Shown here: one piece after another, positions 25,299-31,957 of the stretch
How the letters are laid out: each line of letters opens with the position of its first letter
Position numbering within the stretch: position 1 is the first letter of the stretch
Source: a virus
Taxonomy: Duplodnaviria; Heunggongvirae; Uroviricota; Caudoviricetes
IMG/VR virus record: IMGVR_UViG_2706796742_000001
Span: 1-64,000 of that record
Reading direction: 5' to 3' (one strand)
Length of the DNA stretch: 64,000 bases
Program-made: the position numbers and the translations under genes
Notes under the pieces: generated by a model
What the model saw: only the letters and a program-made list of their open reading frames with translations
What the model was told of the DNA's origin: nothing
Databases searched by the model: none

Positions 25299-26714
25299 AT
25301 GAGCGAATTATTTAAACATGCGCACCTTCATGCAGGTCGAACTGAAAATGGTGCTATAAACCATACTTCACCAATGTCTGCTCTGGTAGACTTCTACAAA
25401 GCCGCTGGCTCAAGCCGTAGCAATGTAGAAATCTTACCAGACCTGTTCTACAAAGCTTTGCGTGAGGATGTTGATGTTGCAGTTCGTATTTTACTGCATA
25501 TGCGAGATGTACGAGAAGGTATGGGTGAGCGTAAAGCTTTCCGAACTGTTTTACTTCAAGCAATTGAAGATAAAGTTTTAGAGCCTACACAGGTTCTTCG
25601 TATTATGGATAAGATTGCAGAACTTGGTCGTTTTGATGACTTCAAAATCTTCGTAGGTACTCGTTTTGAGACAGATGCCTTCAAACATTTAGAAACAGCA
25701 TTACTAGACCCTGCAACAGCAGGTTTAGCAGCTAAGTGGTTACCACGAGTAAAACCACGCCACAAACAGTTTGTAAAACGTTTCTGTAAGTTTGCAAACT
25801 TAAGTGAGAAGGAGTATCGCACACTGTTATCTGCACTGTCTGATACGGTTGAGCAAAAAATCTCTGCTAATGAGTTTGGTAAGATTGACTACAGCAAGAT
25901 TCCTTCACTCGCTGCTGCACGTTACCAAAAACTCTTTAACCGTAAAGATGGGGAACGTTACAAAGCTTACATCGAGTCACTCTCAAAAGGTGAGGCTAAG
26001 ATTAATGCTGGTGCTGTTTACCCATACGATGTGATTAAATCTATTAAATATGGTAATGCAGATGTTGCTAATGAGCAGTGGAAAGCACTACCAAACTGGA
26101 TGGCAGAAGGTGAAAACATCCTGTGTATGACTGATGTTTCAAGCTCAATGTCTTGGGTGAATCTTGGCTCAATCACTGCCCTTGATATTGGTGTATCACT
26201 TGCCTTGTATGTAGCAGAACGCAATACAGGTTGCTTTAAAGATGAGTTAATGGTTTATTCAACAAACCCTCACTTCATCGAACTGAGTGGTGATTTACGA
26301 AACCGTCATCGTCAGGTAATGCGTCATGTTGAATATGGCTCAACTAACTTACAAGCAGCTTTTGACCGCATTCTTGAGACAGGTAAGAGAAACAACTTGA
26401 CTCAGAAAGATATGCCAAGTAAGCTTATCATCTTCTCTGATATGGAGTTTAATCAGGTTGATGGTGCAAATGGTCGTACAAACTTTGAAGCAATTCGTAG
26501 TAAGTACAAAAAAGCTGGATACGAAATGCCACAACTAGTATTCTGGTACTTAGCAAACCGTAATGGTACTTGCGAAGTATCTGTTAAGGATAATGGTGTA
26601 GCAATGGTATCAGGGTTCTCTCCAGCTACTTTAAAAGCTCTGCTTGGTGGTGAGAAGTTTGACCCAATCAGTGTAATGCTCAAAGCAGTAATGATTGACC
26701 GTTACATCTGGTAA
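25299..26714 (+). CDS. vWA-domain protein with alpha-helical N-terminal domain (possible TROVE/Ro60-like or DUF2828-type)
   Basis: MIDAS-like motif CMTDVSSSMS (DxSxS) with downstream Thr and IIFSDMEF acidic motif; preceded by TTGACA-N18-TAAAGT promoter; immediately upstream of tRNA cluster. Confidence 0.5.
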   Translation: MSELFKHAHLHAGRTENGAINHTSPMSALVDFYKAAGSSRSNVEILPDLFYKALREDVDVAVRILLHMRDVREGMGERKAFRTVLLQAIEDKVLEPTQVLRIMDKIAELGRFDDFKIFVGTRFETDAFKHLETALLDPATAGLAAKWLPRVKPRHKQFVKRFCKFANLSEKEYRTLLSALSDTVEQKISANEFGKIDYSKIPSLAAARYQKLFNRKDGERYKAYIESLSKGEAKINAGAVYPYDVIKSIKYGNADVANEQWKALPNWMAEGENILCMTDVSSSMSWVNLGSITALDIGVSLALYVAERNTGCFKDELMVYSTNPHFIELSGDLRNRHRQVMRHVEYGSTNLQAAFDRILETGKRNNLTQKDMPSKLIIFSDMEFNQVDGANGRTNFEAIRSKYKKAGYEMPQLVFWYLANRNGTCEVSVKDNGVAMVSGFSPATLKALLGGEKFDPISVMLKAVMIDRYIW

Positions 26715-26823: not shown

Positions 26824-26853
26824 TTGACAACCACTAAAAAATAATGTTAAAGT
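26824..26853 (+). promoter_or_regulatory. second sigma70-like promoter upstream of tRNA cluster
   Basis: TTGACA-N18-TAAAGT, about 27 nt before first tRNA. Confidence 0.5.
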
Positions 26854-26879: not shown

Positions 26880-26956
26880 CTCTGTTTAGCTCAGCTTGGT
26901 AGAGCGTTCCGTTTGGGGCGGTAAGGCCGGAGGTTCAAGTCCTCCAACAGAGACCA
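26880..26956 (+). tRNA. tRNA-Pro (anticodon TGG)
   Basis: Hand-folded cloverleaf: acceptor CTCTGTT/AACAGAG, T-arm GGAGG-TTCAAGT-CCTCC, anticodon loop TTTGGGG, CCA encoded. Confidence 0.6.
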
Positions 26957-26963
26957 AATTAAT

Positions 26964-27040
26964 GTTCCAGTAGACAAAATGGTATAGTCACCACTCTTTC
27001 AAAGTGGATATTTGAGGGTTCAAATCCCTTCTGGAACGCC
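26964..27040 (+). tRNA. tRNA-Glu (anticodon TTC)
   Basis: Acceptor GTTCCAG/CTGGAAC, anticodon stem CCACT/AGTGG, loop CTTTCAA, T-arm GAGGG-TTCAAAT-CCCTT. Confidence 0.65.
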
Positions 27041-27044
27041 AGTT

Positions 27045-27122
27045 TTGACAGAAGACCAATTACAGCAAACTTAATCTTATACATCTGAAGGTAAATCGGA
27101 CAAAGAAGAGATTTGGTCTGGT
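27045..27122 (+). other. conserved inter-tRNA element E1
   Basis: 5' box CAGAAGACCAATTACAGCAAACTTAA and 3' TTTGGTCTGG able to pair with the 5' AGACCAAA; no T-loop. Confidence 0.5.
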
Positions 27123-27131
27123 CATTAAGAA

Positions 27132-27208
27132 TTGCGGGTATAGAGAAAGGGCGTCTCACATGTCTCATTAGCATGGTATCGGCAGGTTCGACTCCTGCAC
27201 CCGCCTCC
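27132..27208 (+). tRNA. tRNA with CAT anticodon (Met, initiator or Ile-lysidine type); 1-72 mismatch
   Basis: T-arm GCAGG-TTCGACT-CCTGC, anticodon stem CATGT/GCATG, loop CTCATTA; U1-C72 unpaired. Confidence 0.45.
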
Positions 27209-27211
27209 AAT

Positions 27212-27277
27212 TTTGCAGAAGACCGTATGCAGCAATAAACTACTTTTTGCGGATAAAAGAAAAAAACACGGTCTGGC
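27212..27277 (+). other. conserved inter-tRNA element E2
   Basis: CAGAAGACCGTATGCAGCAATAAACT ... CGGTCTGG. Confidence 0.5.
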
Positions 27278-27286
27278 AATGTATTA

Positions 27287-27363
27287 AGGTTAGGAAGCAC
27301 ATAAGGTATGTGCGGTCGCCTGTTAAGCGAATGGCACAGGGTTCGAATCCCTGACTAACCGCC
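27287..27363 (+). tRNA. tRNA-Asn (anticodon GTT)
   Basis: D-stem GCAC/GTGC, anticodon loop CTGTTAA, T-arm CAGGG-TTCGAAT-CCCTG. Confidence 0.65.
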
Positions 27364-27432
27364 AAATTTAGGAGAGAAGCGATTGCTCACCGATTTGTAA
27401 GGTGCAAGTCCTTAGCCTGAATAGAAATTAAA

Positions 27433-27520
27433 TGTGTCGTTATCCCGTAGATGGTAGCGGTGGGGACTGTAAATCCCTTGTCATTGAGACTCGGTAGGTT
27501 CGACTCCTACACGGCACACC
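27433..27520 (+). tRNA. tRNA-Tyr (anticodon GTA), long variable arm
   Basis: 88 nt; acceptor GTGTCGT/ACGGCAC, anticodon loop CTGTAAA, T-arm GTAGG-TTCGACT-CCTAC. Confidence 0.6.
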
Positions 27521-27525
27521 AATAA

Positions 27526-27603
27526 AGGCTATGTAGTTTAATAGGGTTAAAATACTCCCCTGTCACGGGAGATGATGTGAGTTCAAGTCTCATCGTAGCC
27601 GCC
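27526..27603 (+). tRNA. tRNA-Asp (anticodon GTC)
   Basis: Anticodon stem CTCCC/GGGAG, loop CTGTCAC, T-arm GTGAG-TTCAAGT-CTCAT. Confidence 0.6.
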
Positions 27604-27635
27604 AATTTTGAGAGGGCTATTTAGCCCCTCCCTTA

Positions 27636-27668
27636 AAGGGTTCTTACGAGTATCCTTTAAAGGGGCAG
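27636..27668 (+). other. conserved hairpin element, copy 1
   Basis: TTAAAGGGTTCTTACGAGTATCCTTTAA (7-bp stem, 14-nt loop). Confidence 0.45.
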
Positions 27669-27741
27669 AAGACCAAATTCAGCAAGTTACTTAAAATTTC
27701 AAGCCAATTCAATTTTGAAAAAATTTAAAACTTGGTCTGGC
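27662..27741 (+). other. conserved inter-tRNA element E3
   Basis: CAGAAGACCAAATTCAGCAAGTTACTTAA ... TTGGTCTGG. Confidence 0.5.
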
Positions 27742-27750
27742 TCAACAAAT

Positions 27751-27835
27751 TTACAGAAGACCGTTTACAGCAAAACTTAAACAATCTATTTCTCGGTAAA
27801 GAAAAGGCGAAGGTTCGATTCCCTCCACTTCTACC
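27751..27835 (+). other. conserved element E4 with tRNA-like 3' half
   Basis: CAGAAGACCGTTTACAGCAAAACTTAA then GAAGG-TTCGATT-CCCTC T-arm-like hairpin and CCA; only 5 acceptor pairs and no convincing D or anticodon arm. Confidence 0.4.
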
Positions 27836-27839
27836 AATA

Positions 27840-27916
27840 TGGTTCAGTCGCAGATAAGGTAATGCAAGGGTTTCATAAGCCCTATGAATGTGGGTTCGAA
27901 TCCCATCTGAACCTCC
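27840..27916 (+). tRNA. tRNA-Met (anticodon CAT)
   Basis: Acceptor GGTTCAG/CTGAACC, anticodon loop TTCATAA with three G-C pairs in stem, T-arm GTGGG-TTCGAAT-CCCAT. Confidence 0.6.
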
Positions 27917-27918
27917 AA

Positions 27919-27993
27919 TTGTGGGTTAGCATAAATGGTAATGCAAACGGCTGATAACCGTTAGAAGAGGGTTCGATACCCTCACCTACAACC
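27919..27993 (+). tRNA. tRNA-Ile (anticodon GAT)
   Basis: Anticodon stem AACGG/CCGTT, loop CTGATAA, T-arm GAGGG-TTCGATA-CCCTC. Confidence 0.65.
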
Positions 27994-28008
27994 AATTTTA
28001 ATAAAGTT

Positions 28009-28037
28009 GTTGACATTGAGATGTGACCACTTTATAG
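28009..28037 (+). promoter_or_regulatory. strong internal sigma70-like promoter in tRNA cluster
   Basis: TTGACA-N17-TATAGT preceded by A/T-rich tract. Confidence 0.6.
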
Positions 28038-28330
28038 TAACTAAAATACTTCATAATATGTATAATTCAAACACCAATACATGAGCATTAGACGTAATGC
28101 AATGTGGGGAAATTTGTTGTACATATTCTGAATAGTTTTCGTTGCGTAGCGTCTATTTTGCAAATTTAAAATAAATGCAAACGACAATGTTTTTCTGGCA
28201 GTAGCTTGATAGGCTAAACACCAGTGAGGTCTTCCAATCCCTCATCAAAGAATTTGGCGTACTAGCCCACGGTATGATTAATAAGGTGGGCATCTTTAAG
28301 GGCTTTCTAAGAGAGTCTTTAAAGATTAAT

Positions 28331-28407
28331 GCACCCTTAGTTCAACTGGACAGAACAAATGACTTCTAATCATTAGGTTACAGGTTCGAATCCTGTAGGG
28401 TGTGCCA
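28331..28407 (+). tRNA. tRNA-Arg (anticodon TCT)
   Basis: D-stem GTTC/GAAC, anticodon stem AATGA/TCATT, loop CTTCTAA, T-arm ACAGG-TTCGAAT-CCTGT. Confidence 0.7.
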
Positions 28408-28549
28408 AATAGTTAGCAGATTGCTTAGACGACCTTATCGGGTCTCCGTGTAGGGAGGTGGTCTGTATCTCATGTTTTCCAGAACATGTAAATAATCTGA
28501 GAAGGGGCTTTACAGTGTTGTGAAAATACGGTAAGCTTCGAATTATAGT

Positions 28550-28632
28550 GTGGGACGATGTTAAGACTCTAAGGCATGAGCAACGGCCTCCAAAACCGTT
28601 TCAAAGTGGTTCAACTCCTCCGTCCCATGCCA
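28550..28632 (+). tRNA. atypical tRNA-like gene, possibly tRNA-Trp (anticodon CCA) with expanded D region
   Basis: 7-bp acceptor GTGGGAC/GTCCCAT plus CCA; candidate loop CTCCAAA; T-arm weak; D region about 7 nt too long. Confidence 0.3.
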
Positions 28633-28645
28633 AAGTCTTATTAGG

Positions 28646-28733
28646 GGTAGGTAGCGGCTAATGGTAGCCAAACAGTCTTGAAAACTGTTGCCACTGTAGA
28701 GATACGGTGAGGGTTCGACTCCTTTACTTACCG
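28646..28733 (+). tRNA. tRNA-Ser (anticodon TGA), long variable arm
   Basis: Anticodon stem ACAGT/ACTGT, loop CTTGAAA, long variable arm, discriminator G; CCA not fully encoded. Confidence 0.6.
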
Positions 28734-28987
28734 CCTAATAAGATTTAGACCGTCATGCTCGCTCGCATTTTCGGTTTATCCCTCGTGTGTTGTCGTACAC
28801 AAGTAAAGCACCTAGTAGGTGTCACGGAGAAGAGATAATATCAAGCTCTCCAAAGGTTCTAGTCACCGGATTAAACAAGACTATGCAAAGACCTATTTAG
28901 GTCTTTTTAGAGAACTTCTAAGGTTATTACAGCTTGTTGTGGAACCTTGTTGCTTAGGTTCTTAGAAGTTCTCTAAAAAGATTTAAT

Positions 28988-29064
28988 GCACCTATAGCCC
29001 AACTGGTAGAGGCAGCAGACTTAGAATCTGCTCAGTGTGAGTTCGAATCTCTCTAGGTGTACCA
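28988..29064 (+). tRNA. tRNA with anticodon TAG (Leu by code) but short variable loop
   Basis: Leu-like D-arm GCC-CAACTGGTAGA-GGC, anticodon stem GCAGA/TCTGC, loop CTTAGAA, 5-nt variable loop, discriminator A. Confidence 0.45.
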
Positions 29065-29071
29065 AATTAAT

Positions 29072-29147
29072 GCAGGTGTAGCAAAATGGTTATGCGGCTG
29101 ACTCTTAATCAGTAAGACGATGGGTTCAATTCCCTCCACCTGTACCA
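29072..29147 (+). tRNA. tRNA-Lys (anticodon CTT)
   Basis: Anticodon stem GCTGA/TCAGT, loop CTCTTAA; T-arm has two mismatches. Confidence 0.5.
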
Positions 29148-29153
29148 GACATT

Positions 29154-29229
29154 GGGGATGTAGTTTACATGGTTAAAACATAAGTTTTGCAAACTTAAGT
29201 ACAGGGTTCAATTCCCTGCTTCTCCACCA
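29154..29229 (+). tRNA. tRNA-Ala (anticodon TGC)
   Basis: G3-U70 wobble pair in acceptor (Ala identity), D-stem GTTT/AAAC, loop TTTGCAA, T-arm CAGGG-TTCAATT-CCCTG. Confidence 0.7.
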
Positions 29230-29235
29230 ATTAGT

Positions 29236-29310
29236 GCATCCATAGTTTAAACGGGAAAATTACAGTCTTCCAAACTGAGGTTGAGGGTTCGATTCCCTCT
29301 GGATGCTCCA
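29236..29310 (+). tRNA. tRNA-Gly (anticodon TCC)
   Basis: Acceptor GCATCCA/TGGATGC, loop CTTCCAA, T-arm GAGGG-TTCGATT-CCCTC. Confidence 0.6.
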
Positions 29311-29317
29311 AATTAAT

Positions 29318-29394
29318 GCTGCTTTCGTATAATTGGCTATTACACATCCATTGTAAGGATGGAAATGCAGGTTCGAGTCCTGTGAGCAGCACCA
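29318..29394 (+). tRNA. tRNA-Thr (anticodon TGT)
   Basis: Anticodon stem CATCC/GGATG, loop ATTGTAA, T-arm GCAGG-TTCGAGT-CCTGT. Confidence 0.65.
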
Positions 29395-29489
29395 ATTCAG
29401 AGGTCAAGTGAAAGACCGCTGGTGTCAACTGAAGACCGTAACAAATTCCACGGAGTTGAGTTAGCGGCACAACTTCAGACCTCTTTCAC
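29395..29489 (+). other. divergent copy E5 of the inter-tRNA element
   Basis: CTGAAGACCGTAACAAATTCCA; flanking inverted repeat CAGAGGTC ... GACCTCT. Confidence 0.35.
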
Positions 29490-29564
29490 ACTCGCTTAGT
29501 TTATATGGTAAAACATCACCCTTACAAGATGAAGAAAAAGGTTCAAGTCCTTTAGTGAGTACCA
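29490..29564 (+). tRNA. tRNA-Val (anticodon TAC)
   Basis: D-stem GTTT/AAAC, loop CTTACAA, T-arm AAAGG-TTCAAGT-CCTTT; one C-A mismatch in anticodon stem. Confidence 0.55.
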
Positions 29565-29565
29565 T

Positions 29566-29643
29566 GTTCCAGTATCCCAATTGGCAGAGGATGCAAGCTC
29601 AAACCTTGTATTAGTGACGGTTCGAATCCGTCTTGGAACACCA
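29566..29643 (+). tRNA. tRNA with anticodon CAA (Leu by code) but short variable loop
   Basis: Leu-like D-arm TCC-CAATTGGCAGA-GGA, anticodon stem GCAAG/CTTGT, loop CTCAAAC, 6-nt variable loop, T-arm GACGG-TTCGAAT-CCGTC. Confidence 0.45.
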
Positions 29644-29659
29644 ATTTTAGGAGAACACT

Positions 29660-29767
29660 ATGAGTGATAAATCAATTGCAAAAAAGTTTATAGCGTCATT
29701 CAAAAATAGGCGTAAAAACAAAGATTGTGAAAATCTGTATGGTGTTCTTGTAGGTAAGCAGGATTAG
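29660..29767 (+). CDS. possible small basic protein (35 aa) inside the tRNA cluster
   Basis: AGGAG RBS 6 nt before ATG; ORF MSDKSIAKKFIASFKNRRKNKDCENLYGVLVGKQD; 3' end overlaps start of a tRNA. Confidence 0.25.
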   Translation: MSDKSIAKKFIASFKNRRKNKDCENLYGVLVGKQD

Positions 29768-29833
29768 TTCAAATGGATAGAGCAGCAGTCTACGAAGCTG
29801 TTAATAGGGGTTCGAATCCCTTATCCTGCGCCA
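29758..29833 (+). tRNA. tRNA-Arg (anticodon ACG)
   Basis: Acceptor GCAGGAT/ATCCTGC, loop CTACGAA, T-arm AGGGG-TTCGAAT-CCCTT. Confidence 0.65.
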
Positions 29834-29852
29834 ATTTAAAGAGGCTATTTAG

Positions 29853-30410
29853 ATGAGATATTTGAAGTATGCTTCATGGATTTTCCTAGCTTTGCTAGAA
29901 CCATTTGCAGCAATCCTAGCAGTCATCTTAGCACCTTTTGTAGTTCCATTCTACAGTGAGAAGAAAGGGCACTTACCTTTCGGCTTCAGATGGATGGAGA
30001 CATATGACAACCCAATTGATGGTGATAAAGGTCATGTTGAACGATGGGCTAAGATTAGAAAGGTTGGTAAGCTTGGTGTCTATATGCAGAGAGTCGGTTG
30101 GCTCTGGAGAAACAAAGCTTATAACTTCTCTTACCATGTGTTAGGAAGAGATGTAAAAGATGTTACTAAGTGGAAAGGTAATATCAATGTAAGTTCTGAC
30201 CCTGAAGATAATCAGACAGGTTATCTCCTAATGTGGAACAGCAATGCTTGGGGATTATTTGCTTTTGTACCATCAATTAAAGTCTTTGGTAAACAGTTTT
30301 ACTGGAGAATTTATATTGGATGGAAACTTAAAAGTGTTGTCCCAGAAGAAAGAGCATTCTCAAGGGAAAGAGTTATGTTGGCATTCTTTATTCATCCACT
30401 AAGAAAATAA
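29853..30410 (+). CDS. membrane protein embedded in tRNA cluster
   Basis: N-terminal hydrophobic stretch WIFLALLEPFAAILAVILAPFVVPF; RBS agagg; flanked by tRNAs. Confidence 0.5.
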   Translation: MRYLKYASWIFLALLEPFAAILAVILAPFVVPFYSEKKGHLPFGFRWMETYDNPIDGDKGHVERWAKIRKVGKLGVYMQRVGWLWRNKAYNFSYHVLGRDVKDVTKWKGNINVSSDPEDNQTGYLLMWNSNAWGLFAFVPSIKVFGKQFYWRIYIGWKLKSVVPEERAFSRERVMLAFFIHPLRK

Positions 30411-30418
30411 AGATTTAA

Positions 30419-30494
30419 AGGGGATTAGTTTACAAGGTTAAAACCTCGGTCTTTGAAATCGAAGAAGTTGGTTCAATTCCAACATCCCCCGCCA
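30419..30494 (+). tRNA. tRNA-Gln (anticodon TTG)
   Basis: D-stem GTTT/AAAC, loop CTTTGAA, T-arm GTTGG-TTCAATT-CCAAC; unpaired 1-72 position. Confidence 0.6.
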
Positions 30495-30496
30495 AT

Positions 30497-30575
30497 GCTC
30501 CATTACTCCAATTGGCAGAGAGGCCAGACTTAAAATCTGTGTTATGTATCGGTTCGAATCCGATATGGAGTACCA
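30497..30575 (+). tRNA. tRNA with anticodon TAA (Leu by code) but short variable loop
   Basis: Leu-like D-arm CTC-CAATTGGCAGA-GAG, loop CTTAAAA, 7-nt variable loop, T-arm ATCGG-TTCGAAT-CCGAT, discriminator A. Confidence 0.45.
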
Positions 30576-30580
30576 AATTT

Positions 30581-30656
30581 AGCGGTATAGCATAACTGGC
30601 AATGCAGCAGTCTCTGAAGCTGTCTTATTAAGGTTCAAATCCTTATGCCGCTGCCA
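30581..30656 (+). tRNA. tRNA-Gln (anticodon CTG)
   Basis: Anticodon stem GCAGT/GCTGT, loop CTCTGAA, T-arm TAAGG-TTCAAAT-CCTTA, weak A1-U72 pair. Confidence 0.6.
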
Positions 30657-30657
30657 C

Positions 30658-30690
30658 TTCTAAGGGTTCTTACGAGAGTCCTTAAATGTG
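30658..30690 (+). other. conserved hairpin element, copy 2
   Basis: CTAAGGGTTCTTACGAGAGTCCTTAAA, same loop core GGGTTCTTACGAG as copy 1. Confidence 0.45.
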
Positions 30691-30763
30691 GCCTTATCAT
30701 AAATGGTAATGACCCATGCTGTGAACATGGTCTATACGGGTTCAAATCCCGTAGGTCACCCCA
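30688..30763 (+). tRNA. tRNA-His (anticodon GTG)
   Basis: Anticodon stem CCATG/CATGG, loop CTGTGAA, T-arm ACGGG-TTCAAAT-CCCGT, discriminator C. Confidence 0.65.
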
Positions 30764-30768
30764 ATTTA

Positions 30769-30843
30769 TAGTCCAAGTAGCTTATATGGTTAAAGCGCGT
30801 GTCTGAAAAACATGAGAAGAGGGTTCAAATCCCACTGGACTAC
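30769..30843 (+). tRNA. tRNA-Phe (anticodon GAA)
   Basis: Acceptor TAGTCCA/TGGACTA, D-stem GCTT/AAGC, anticodon stem CGTGT/ACATG, loop CTGAAAA; two extra nt before D-stem. Confidence 0.5.
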
Positions 30844-30861
30844 CAATTTCAAAGGTGCTTA

Positions 30862-31596
30862 ATGAAAGAGATGACAGAACAAGGTAAGGAGATTTTTAAT
30901 CTCTTAAAAACCGGTAGAGGGTTTTCTAATCCCCTTATTACTGGTGCAGCAGTTCTCGGTGGAACCGTAGCTGCCTCTACATCACTTGTAAGCTCTATTA
31001 GCTCTGTAACAGACCCTACAATAAAGGATAAGCTTATTGCTGCTGGACTTACAACAGTTCTACTTAGCAGCTTTACAACGAGTCTGACAAGCACTACATC
31101 AACCACTAAAACACTGACAGATTACGGTCAAAAGTCCATTGATGAGTTTTCATCACGTATGCAGGTAGCAAAAGGATATTCTAATGCTATGGGTGCAGCA
31201 GGAGAGCAAGTCGGTTGTACACCTTTTAGTGGTATTATGGGTGTTGCTACAGAATATGGTCAAAAAGCTATTGACACAATTAACAGTGCACTAGATAGTG
31301 TTAACGGTGTGTTAAGTGACTTACAGGATGCTATTGACGAAGGTCTTGATACTATTTCTGATTTAGCTAACCAAGCTGTTAGCAAGATTAATGAAGGTAT
31401 CTCGAAGATTACAGCTTATGCAGACGAAGTTGTGCAGATGATTGAAGAAGAAGCTGCCCTTATTGCAGAGTACCTTAAAACGAATATCAATGGGTTCTTA
31501 GCAGGTATCTTACCAGACTGGTTTGATGATGCTTGTAAAACTGGTGTAATTGACACTATTGCAACACCAGAAATGAAGAACGCATTACAGAAATAA
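30862..31596 (+). CDS. hypothetical Ser/Thr-rich protein
   Basis: Start moved from track ATG 30799 (which overlaps a tRNA) to in-frame ATG at 30862 with aaagg RBS. Confidence 0.45.
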   Translation: MKEMTEQGKEIFNLLKTGRGFSNPLITGAAVLGGTVAASTSLVSSISSVTDPTIKDKLIAAGLTTVLLSSFTTSLTSTTSTTKTLTDYGQKSIDEFSSRMQVAKGYSNAMGAAGEQVGCTPFSGIMGVATEYGQKAIDTINSALDSVNGVLSDLQDAIDEGLDTISDLANQAVSKINEGISKITAYADEVVQMIEEEAALIAEYLKTNINGFLAGILPDWFDDACKTGVIDTIATPEMKNALQK

Positions 31597-31597
31597 T

Positions 31598-31690
31598 GGA
31601 AGATTAACCCTAAAAGGTAAGGGAGCAGTTTGCTAAACTGCCAGTAGCTGAGAAATCGGTGTACCAGTTCAAGTCTGGTATCTTCCTCCA
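31598..31690 (+). tRNA. tRNA-Ser (anticodon GCT), long variable arm
   Basis: 93 nt; acceptor GGAAGAT/ATCTTCC, anticodon stem GCAGT/ACTGC, loop TTGCTAA, T-arm ACCAG-TTCAAGT-CTGGT, CCA encoded. Confidence 0.55.
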
Positions 31691-31694
31691 ATTT

Positions 31695-31770
31695 GAATCC
31701 GTGACAGAAATGGCTATGTGCCTGTCTGCAAAACAGGTTTATAAGGGTTCGAGTCCCTTCGGATTCTCCA
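31695..31770 (+). tRNA. tRNA-Cys (anticodon GCA)
   Basis: Acceptor GAATCCG/CGGATTC, anticodon stem CCTGT/ACAGG, loop CTGCAAA, T-arm AAGGG-TTCGAGT-CCCTT, discriminator T. Confidence 0.65.
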
Positions 31771-31932: not shown

Positions 31933-31957
31933 GACGGTCTCTGTACCGTCTTTTTTA
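31933..31957 (+). terminator. rho-independent terminator
   Basis: GACGGTCTCTGTACCGTC followed by TTTTTT. Confidence 0.5.

Follow-up and report, generated by a model that had tools for sequence, protein, structure and literature searches.

Type I tRNA-Leu genes with short variable loops in the tRNA array of a Felix O1-like phage

According to a 2023 review, tRNA-Leu carries a long variable arm everywhere but in animal mitochondria (Giegé and Eriani; PMC9976931), and the locus described here raises the question of whether three phage genes with Leu anticodons and no such arm are genuine leucine tRNAs. The window (positions 1 to 64,000 of IMG/VR record IMGVR_UViG_2706796742_000001, that is, the whole stretch of 64,000 nucleotides [nt] analyzed) comes from a Felix O1-like phage (Felixounavirus): the region is 94–98% identical to more than 250 Felix O1-like genomes (Felixounavirus and relatives), and these relatives infect Escherichia, Salmonella, Shigella, and Citrobacter. 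A preliminary description, made from the sequence alone, had placed tRNA-Leu genes with the anticodons TAG, CAA, and TAA in a tRNA cluster, had counted only 5–7 nt between their anticodon and T stems, and had left two options: an unusual class I-like set of tRNA-Leu, or an artifact of folding by hand. The Felix O1 record already annotates the three genes as tRNA-Leu, and the genes themselves are thus known; their architecture is the part without earlier discussion.

ARAGORN recovered the three genes at exactly the coordinates and with the anticodons first described, and their Infernal alignments to Rfam family RF00005 extend over model positions 1–71 of 71, with every score above the 29-bit gathering threshold (Table 1). 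The two programs agree on a common fold, comprised of a 7-bp acceptor stem, U8 and A9, a 3-bp D stem, an 11-nt D loop, a 5-bp anticodon stem, a variable loop of 5, 6, or 7 nt, and the T loop TTCGAAT, followed by A73 and an encoded CCA. The D loop is CAACTGGTAGA in Leu(UAG) and CAATTGGCAGA in both Leu(CAA) and Leu(UAA), which corresponds to the consensus CAAYTGGYAGA; this loop, the 3-bp D stem, A73, and the variable loop lengths had all been read correctly by eye. The D stems are GCC/GGC in Leu(UAG), TCC/GGA in Leu(CAA), and CTC/GAG in Leu(UAA), with 13:22 flagged as a non-standard pair in each. The anticodon loops are CUUAGAA (with A37), CUCAAAC, and CUUAAAA (A36A37A38), respectively, and a G1-U72 pair occurs in Leu(UAG) and Leu(UAA).

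Table 1. Positions of the three tRNA-Leu genes, their variable loops, and associated features of the array in the window (aa, amino acids; ORF, open reading frame).
Feature	Position	Strand	Evidence or remark
tRNA-Leu(UAG), 77 nt, type I	28988..29064	+	ARAGORN; RF00005, 57.3 bits; segment comparison with E. coli leuW
Variable loop of tRNA-Leu(UAG), TCAGT (5 nt), last nt U48	29032..29036	+	RF00005, ARAGORN, host comparison
tRNA-Leu(CAA), 78 nt, type I	29566..29643	+	ARAGORN; RF00005, 44.0 bits; 100% identical in Felix O1 and Citrobacter phage Michonne
Variable loop of tRNA-Leu(CAA), ATTAGT (6 nt), last nt U48	29610..29615	+	RF00005, ARAGORN, host comparison
tRNA-Leu(UAA), 79 nt, type I	30497..30575	+	ARAGORN; RF00005, 47.5 bits; 214 phage records at >=99% identity
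Variable loop of tRNA-Leu(UAA), GTTATGT (7 nt), last nt U48	30541..30547	+	RF00005, ARAGORN, host comparison
tRNA array, 25 genes, including the three tRNA-Leu	26880..31770	+	ARAGORN; homologous arrays in Felix O1, FG1m, and Michonne
tRNA-Tyr(GUA), 88 nt, long variable arm, internal control	27434..27521	+	ARAGORN
tRNA-Ser(UGA), 90 nt, long variable arm, internal control	28646..28735	+	ARAGORN
tRNA-Ser(GCU), 93 nt, long variable arm, internal control	31598..31690	+	ARAGORN
ORF of 471 aa upstream of the array	25299..26714	+	Matches DUF2828 and DUF7788
Promoter-like TTGACA-18-TAAAGT with extended TG	26824..26853	+	Just before the first tRNA
DUF7338 family protein, 185 aa	29853..30410	+	Inside the array
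DUF7217 protein, 265 aa	30799..31596	+	Inside the array
Terminator-like hairpin and T run	31933..31950	+	After the last tRNA

With a length of 77–79 nt, the genes have no room for a long arm. The tRNA-Tyr and tRNA-Ser genes of the same array do carry the long arms ascribed to them earlier, and ARAGORN found no tRNA-Leu in the array beyond the three. Neither program placed a long arm in these genes or gave another anticodon; with one fold obtained independently from ARAGORN and Infernal/Rfam, and with the covariation described below, the suspicion that the short loops were an artifact of hand folding is ruled out, and we give it practically no weight. Single-sequence minimum-free-energy folding (z −0.16 to −1.78, with a non-cloverleaf structure for Leu(UAA)) is uninformative for tRNAs and was not used.

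The fold was further examined in a larger set of viral sequences. IMG/VR was scanned with two patterns that fix a Leu-type D loop, its spacing to an NAR anticodon, and the T loop, while leaving the variable region free from ∼4 to 21 nt; the counts reported here are drawn from the first 120 contigs listed per pattern (233 loci), and the fractions concern pattern-matching tRNAs rather than a full census. A cloverleaf with a short loop, in which 18 or more of the 20 stem pairs form, accommodates 94 of the 96 unique short viral tRNA-Leu among the matches listed in the first scan. In a gapless alignment of 49 short tRNA-Leu, the UAG gene of the window included, 97.8% of cells are paired (a value inflated by the fold filter) and 383 double-sided changes occur. 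The covariation score, which the filter does not inflate, is 1.047, compared to at most 0.2 for slid partners, and none of 500 shuffles reaches it.

A type II tRNA-Leu is expected to have a stem-loop variable arm longer than 10 nt and a G9/G12-C23/R13 core; the three genes have loops of 5, 6, and 7 nt, and A9/C12-G23/C13 in every case. A canonical class I tRNA has a 4-bp D stem and a 4–5-nt loop, and here too the genes differ, with a 3-bp D stem, a non-standard 13:22 pair, and loops of 5, 6, and 7 nt; they are class I-like in arm length only. They conform instead to type I tRNA-Leu, with a Leu anticodon, a loop of at least 5 nt that includes nucleotide 48 (a length requirement taken from PMC6614811), a 3-bp D stem, A14, an A9/C12-G23/C13-A22 core, and a YCCCAAYTGGCAGAGGR-like D arm in all three. 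The class I-like option of the preliminary description was therefore correct, yet the genes are less isolated than it supposed: tRNA arrays of phages often contain this architecture, and Actinomycetota have it natively.

This core separates the two classes of viral tRNA-Leu among the matches listed. Position 9 is G in 99% of the long sequences (n = 212) and A in 67% of the short ones (n = 133); the 12-23 pair is G-C in 98% of the former and C-G in 68% of the latter; and position 13 is G or A in 96% of the long and C in 65% of the short. Jointly, A9/C12-G23/C13 occurs in 71 of the 133 short and in none of the 212 long tRNA-Leu (Fisher p ∼1e-46, an indication of effect size only, since the sequences are related), and U48 is present in 98% of the short class. 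The same combination is found in all three window genes and in most native actinobacterial ones (A9 in 78%, C13 in 87%, and C12-G23 in 79% of the actinobacterial loci listed). The short form is more than a long tRNA-Leu with its arm deleted, as a distinct core takes the place of G9/G12-C23/R13. A minority of short tRNA-Leu, such as three genes of Aeromonas phage AhP_Mru1, keep a long-arm-like core (G9/G12-C23/G13), which suggests more than one origin of the short form. In tRNA-Leu, position 9 forms a base triple with the 12-23 pair (PMC12360207), and a re-wired triple could plausibly compensate for the missing arm.

Variable-region lengths among the listed viral matches are bimodal, with hardly any intermediates. 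The patterns themselves are neutral with respect to arm length, and they returned 63 short and 67 long tRNA-Leu for the D loop TGGCAKA and 29 short and 95 long for TGGTAKA, or 92 short out of 254 combined. According to ARAGORN, 144 of 364 tRNA-Leu (40%) in the 233 viral loci are at most 80 nt long, compared with 0 of 112 tRNA-Ser. Six of 47 tRNA-Tyr in the loci listed also fall at or below 80 nt, and a minority of phage tRNA-Tyr may also lack the long arm. The short viral tRNA-Leu mostly have taa, caa, or tag anticodons, and the GC content of the listed loci that carry them ranges from <30% to >65%, mostly 35–50%, a spread on which we rejected a distribution confined to actinophages.

Several named phages are among the carriers. 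AhP_Mru1 (Demerecviridae) and Lactobacillus phage LpeD (Herelleviridae), both reached through weak BLAST matches, each have a short UAG/CAA/UAA tRNA-Leu triplet of 74–77 nt, Vibrio phage KVP40 has two short tRNA-Leu of 77 nt each, and the T5-like coliphage HdH2 (Tequintavirus) has a short tRNA-Leu(UAA) of 77 nt. Further matches, which are candidates for the short form and of which many are annotated as tRNA-Leu, occur in phages of Mycobacterium, Streptomyces, Gordonia, Myxococcus, and Pseudomonas. Two candidate carriers, T5 and Listeria phage A511, were rejected: the single tRNA-Leu(UAG) of T5 and the tRNA-Leu(UAG) of A511 are both 85 nt and long-armed. These two genes resemble those of the window in being phage-encoded members of tRNA arrays with a Leu-type D loop (GAACTGGTAGA), A73, and A37, and differ in having a long arm of ∼13 nt and a G9/G12-C23-type core. 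Other unusual tRNAs were seen in the AhP_Mru1 and LpeD loci, namely a UCA-anticodon tRNA annotated as a suppressor in AhP_Mru1 (L002 796-875), and a tRNA with the four-base anticodon tttg, as called by ARAGORN (L004 5574-5645), and a 92-nt tRNA-Ile(UAU) (L004 4296-4387) in LpeD.

The short form also occurs in cellular genomes. A short-only pattern run on species-representative bacterial genomes gave at least 120 matches, of which the 80 titled ones were considered. Among these listed matches, the single-tRNA loci are nearly all from Actinomycetota (including Nocardia, Gordonia, Mycobacterium, Rhodococcus, Arthrobacter, Corynebacterium, Amycolatopsis, and Pseudonocardia), with taa, caa, or tag anticodons and a D arm, GCCCAAYTGGCAGAGGC, almost the same as that of the window genes. 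The matches listed outside Actinomycetota lie in arrays of 2–29 tRNAs per 8 kb in metagenome-assembled genomes of Acidobacteriota, Planctomycetota, Elusimicrobia, and others, and these arrays are probably mobile or phage-derived. The native short form is thus far wider in Actinomycetota than the single Streptomyces case that we found in the literature. Two published observations fit a native short tRNA-Leu in this phylum: the Streptomyces coelicolor type I tRNA-Leu(CAA) is leucylated in vitro by its own leucyl-tRNA synthetase (LeuRS) (Fan et al., 2019; PMC6614811), and only tRNA-Leu-2, -3, and -5 have long loops in Mycobacterium tuberculosis (PMC11541572, a study of MenT3).

The type I tRNA-Leu of Streptomyces and other Actinomycetota share with the window genes the short variable loop (5 nt in Streptomyces), the 3-bp D stem, A73, a nearly identical D arm (NCCCAAYTGGCAGAGGN), and the A9/C12-G23/C13 core. 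They also differ in several respects: the Streptomyces tRNA-Leu(CAA) is a proven LeuRS substrate, whereas charging of the window genes is predicted; it has C48 rather than the U48 of the window, where two of the genes also have 6- and 7-nt loops; and the window genes are phage-borne, in a 25-tRNA array, with enterobacterial hosts that have only long-armed tRNA-Leu. The transferred tRNA clusters of Mycobacterium (Behra et al., 2019; PMC6582537) are similar in that a short-loop tRNA-Leu(TAG), in contrast to the host's normal long-armed copy, is found in a mobile array bearing an HNH endonuclease. That case concerns one isoacceptor in an actinobacterial host and is reported in one sentence, without identity-element or distribution analysis; in the full-text literature searched, this sentence was the sole remark, and no account of arm-less tRNA-Leu as a general phage feature was found. 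Animal mitochondrial tRNA-Leu likewise combines a short variable loop with A73 and A14 as identity elements (PMC9976931), but it has degenerate D and T loops and a dedicated LeuRS, whereas the elbow of the phage tRNAs is fully canonical (G18G19, TTCGAAT), and their charging would depend on a bacterial LeuRS. A minimalist E. coli tRNA-Leu (Larkin et al., 2002, as summarized in PMC9976931) also dispensed with the long arm while keeping A73 and the D/T tertiary pairs; as summarized there, it was artificial, whereas the window genes are natural, bear anticodons, and have a re-wired core.

Comparison with the host genes, which the preliminary description had proposed, was made by cutting E. coli K-12 leuW (UAG, 85 nt), leuX (CAA, 85 nt), and leuZ (UAA, 87 nt) into cloverleaf segments beside the phage genes. 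The two sets have the same three anticodons and a common layout (7/2/3/11/3/1/5/7/5/.../5/7/5/7/1/CCA) apart from the variable region, which has 13–15 nt in the host and 5–7 nt in the phage. They share U8, A14, A15, G18G19, A20a, U48 as the last variable nucleotide, A73, and CCA, and differ in the core, where the host has G9, G12-C23, and A or G at position 13, and the phage has A9, C12-G23, and C13. At 29021-29027, the anticodon loop of the window Leu(UAG) carries A37, in contrast to the G37 of leuW (the m1G37 site); A37 is also present in the tRNA-Leu(UAG) of T5 and in many viral tRNA-Leu(UAG), regardless of arm class. When a host copy or origin was sought by blastn in 5,426 complete E. coli genomes, none of the three genes gave a match.

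The shared positions are largely those that define leucine identity in E. coli. The review cited above assigns this identity to the D/T tertiary pairs together with A73, U8-A14, A15-U48, G18G19, and A20a, and describes E. coli LeuRS as independent of both the anticodon and the long arm (PMC9976931); a further report concurs on the tertiary core (PMC2377443). As summarized in the same review, constructs without the variable and anticodon arms were still charged and edited by E. coli LeuRS (Larkin et al., 2002; PMC9976931). A73 is present in all three window genes, as it is in 100% of the 133 short viral tRNA-Leu among the matches listed. U8, A14, A15, and U48, also present in all three, are compatible with a U8-A14 pair and a trans-Levitt A15-U48 pair; the phage CAAYTGGYAGA aligns position by position with the host RAAYYGGTAGA, which places G18G19 and A20a; and the predicted elbow, with the T loop TTCGAAT, would allow G18-U55, G19-C56, and U54-A58. 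When the three genes were compared with 989 viral tRNAs, 30–39 of the 40 nearest neighbors were tRNA-Leu, short and long counted together.

In relatives of the phage, a comparison that had likewise been called for, short tRNA-Leu are found in Felix O1, Salmonella phage FG1m, and Citrobacter phage Michonne (genus Mooglevirus). Across the window, Felix O1, and Michonne, the identity of Leu(CAA) and of Leu(UAA) is 100%, with flanking DNA at 80–86%, and 214 of the 262 phage records that match Leu(UAA) do so at >=99% identity; identical genes amid diverged flanks point to purifying selection. The Leu(UAG) slot is more variable. The GCACCTA... allele is common to the window and Michonne, and at the same place in the array Felix O1 (L001 3089-3166) and FG1m (L005 5421-5498) carry a markedly different tRNA-Leu(UAG) allele of 78 nt (GGGAGAT...), which is also short-armed, as if one cassette of the array had been replaced by another. 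Between the copies of this allele in Felix O1 and FG1m, several positions differ on the two strands of the anticodon stem, and one is mispaired in FG1m. FG1m also lacks tRNA-Arg(ACG), the DUF7338 ORF, tRNA-Gln(UUG), and tRNA-Leu(UAA), and its tRNA-Leu(CAA) (L005 5999-6076) is chimeric, the 5′ part being from Leu(CAA) and the part 3′ of the T loop from Leu(UAA), an arrangement suggestive of a deletion through recombination at the identical T loops. The chimera has mismatches in the acceptor and T stems, and the record gives it no tRNA annotation.

We infer that the three genes are expressed, charged, and used by the ribosome as functional type I Leu decoders of UUA, UUG, and CUN codons, most likely with the host LeuRS as the charging enzyme, and we place the probability of this reading at about 0.78. 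The UAA anticodon would read UUA and UUG, CAA would read UUG, and UAG would read CUA and CUG, and possibly all CUN codons, such that the three cover the UUR box plus at least CUA and CUG. Leucylation would be carried out by the LeuRS of E. coli, Salmonella, Shigella, or Citrobacter. In this mechanism the long arm would have been lost, as E. coli LeuRS reportedly needs none, with the identity elements retained, and A9, C12-G23, and C13 opposite A22 would replace the G9, G12-C23, R13 core of long-armed tRNA-Leu. That seryl- and tyrosyl-tRNA synthetases (SerRS and TyrRS) use the arm, which LeuRS reportedly does not need, would explain why it was lost in the Leu tRNAs only; the reading of arm size by SerRS (PMC9976931) fits the lack of short tRNA-Ser in the viral loci. 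The E. coli modification enzyme TrmL disregards the long arm and reads the anticodon loop (PMC4615657). The A36A37A38 motif needed for the TrmL pathway is present in Leu(UAA), and modification of Leu(CAA), which has C38, appears less certain.

The codon usage of the phage is consistent with a need for such decoders. In the 65 long ORFs of the window (GC 38.8%), Leu codons are distributed as TTA 29%, CTT 26%, CTG 14%, TTG 13%, CTA 11%, and CTC 7%. In E. coli, CUG makes up about half of the Leu codons, and the Leu codon usage of this AT-rich virulent phage is thus far from that of its host. No candidate for a phage LeuRS stood out by size: an enzyme of this kind is about 860 aa long, and the nine window ORFs of at least 450 aa, which were not searched individually and represent part of the genome, reach 780 aa at most.

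Several observations weigh against functional decoding with host charging. Leu(UAG) contains a U-U mismatch in its T stem, Leu(UAA) contains a C27-U43 mismatch in its anticodon stem, and the 6- and 7-nt loops are longer than usual, the typical length being 5 nt, as in 86% of the short tRNA-Leu of viruses. A15/U48 is found in 94–96% of tRNA-Leu but also in 10–67% of other phage isotypes; it is necessary without being discriminating, and was rejected as a Leu-specific marker. The long arm contacts the C-terminal domain of E. coli LeuRS (K809, R811) and has been treated as a recognition element (PMC12360207; PMC3561953). Most directly, E. coli LeuRS did not charge a transcript of the S. coelicolor type I tRNA-Leu(CAA), and the authors generalize that it charges type II only (PMC6614811). 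The loop of that tRNA is ACAGC (PMC6614811), that is, with C48 and therefore no A15-U48 pair, and the failure may not transfer to the phage genes.

The same failure could be taken to mean that short tRNAs with Leu anticodons are not Leu acceptors at all, but carry a different amino acid (recoding) or stay uncharged and work outside translation as decoys or regulators. Class-switching tRNAs of unexpected identity do exist, the nematode nev-tRNAs being an example (PMC3333845). We nevertheless find such an identity improbable, given that all E. coli Leu identity elements are present and aligned with those of the host isoacceptors, that A73 and U48 are near-universal in the short viral class, that most of the nearest viral tRNAs are tRNA-Leu, and that neither G3-U70 nor any other foreign determinant was seen. 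The three are, moreover, the phage's sole Leu tRNAs and match its most used non-CUG Leu codons, and an actinobacterial member of the class is leucylated. More improbable still is decay, in which the genes would be remnants of long-armed tRNA-Leu with the arm deleted: the single stem mismatches in Leu(UAG) and Leu(UAA), and the plastic array with its loss of Leu(UAA) and chimeric Leu(CAA/UAA) in FG1m, would be expected of pseudogenes, but cross-genus identity of Leu(CAA) and Leu(UAA) despite diverged flanks, conservation in >250 genomes, strong compensatory covariation in the family, intact CCA ends, and a core signature that is distinct and recurrent, unlike a random deletion scar, all argue otherwise.

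A different possibility is that loss of the arm is itself adaptive. Phages would have repeatedly adopted or exchanged the distinct arm-less A9/C12-G23/C13 class because armless decoding resists host or phage-made factors that read the class II long arm, with the result that Leu decoding survives inactivation of the host tRNA-Leu. Eukaryotic Schlafen11, for instance, cleaves type II tRNAs. An article on Schlafen11 mentions type I tRNA and tRNA-Leu (PMC10359600), and arm-reading tRNA toxins and nucleases exist, with MenT3 reading the long loop of tRNA-Ser (PMC11541572). The proportion of the short form in the viral contigs (∼36–40% of tRNA-Leu among the matches listed) is also above the textbook view of cells (PMC9976931), and the form is absent from the 5,426 E. 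coli genomes. However, no toxin of Enterobacteria is known to target tRNA-Leu via the arm, the phage's own Ser and Tyr tRNAs retain theirs, and the short genes of Actinomycetota are ordinary chromosomal genes, beyond any defense argument; tolerance by LeuRS suffices to explain arm loss in Leu only. We therefore regard an adaptive escape as unlikely. If true, it would make the Felix O1 set part of a counter-defense or host-takeover toolkit, beyond codon supplementation, with the corollary that natural type I tRNA-Leu are charged by E. coli LeuRS in vivo, in conflict with the published type II-only statement.

Other features of the array were noted alongside the tRNA-Leu genes (Table 1). The upstream 471-aa ORF, termed an RNA-binding protein in the Michonne and FG1m annotation, ends ∼165 nt before the first tRNA, and its place beside the array is conserved. 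The DUF7338 gene, annotated as a putative membrane protein in one relative, and the DUF7217 gene are both kept in Felix O1 and Michonne. HNH endonuclease genes lie between tRNA genes in Felix O1 (L001 1144-1629, 2117-2509, and 3427-3840) and Michonne (L249 3050-3502), and the window lacks them at the corresponding intervals (e.g., Gly-Thr, 29310-29318); insertions in some relatives and not in the window are consistent with a mobile, plastic array. Promoter-like and terminator-like elements bracket the tRNA genes, and a promoter scan of the array gave 14 sites compared to 13.9 expected by chance, which provides no evidence on transcription units.

Type I tRNA-Leu was already known from animal mitochondria and, since 2019, from S. 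coelicolor, and the only studied bacterial exception that we found is that one Streptomyces tRNA (PMC6614811). What is added here is the frequency of the class in phages, a core signature specific to it, and, in coliphages, a test of whether bacterial LeuRS needs the arm. The arm-less form accounts for roughly a third or more of the sampled phage tRNA-Leu among the matches listed, and classical phages (Felix O1, KVP40, and T5-like coliphages) have it. The tRNA-OTHER label, applied to some array tRNAs in some public records, is a caution for annotation pipelines, and the short class may provide compact natural scaffolds for tRNA engineering. If the LeuRS of E. coli and Salmonella charge these tRNAs, the disputed arm requirement of bacterial LeuRS would be settled; if they do not, these highly conserved genes would serve another purpose.

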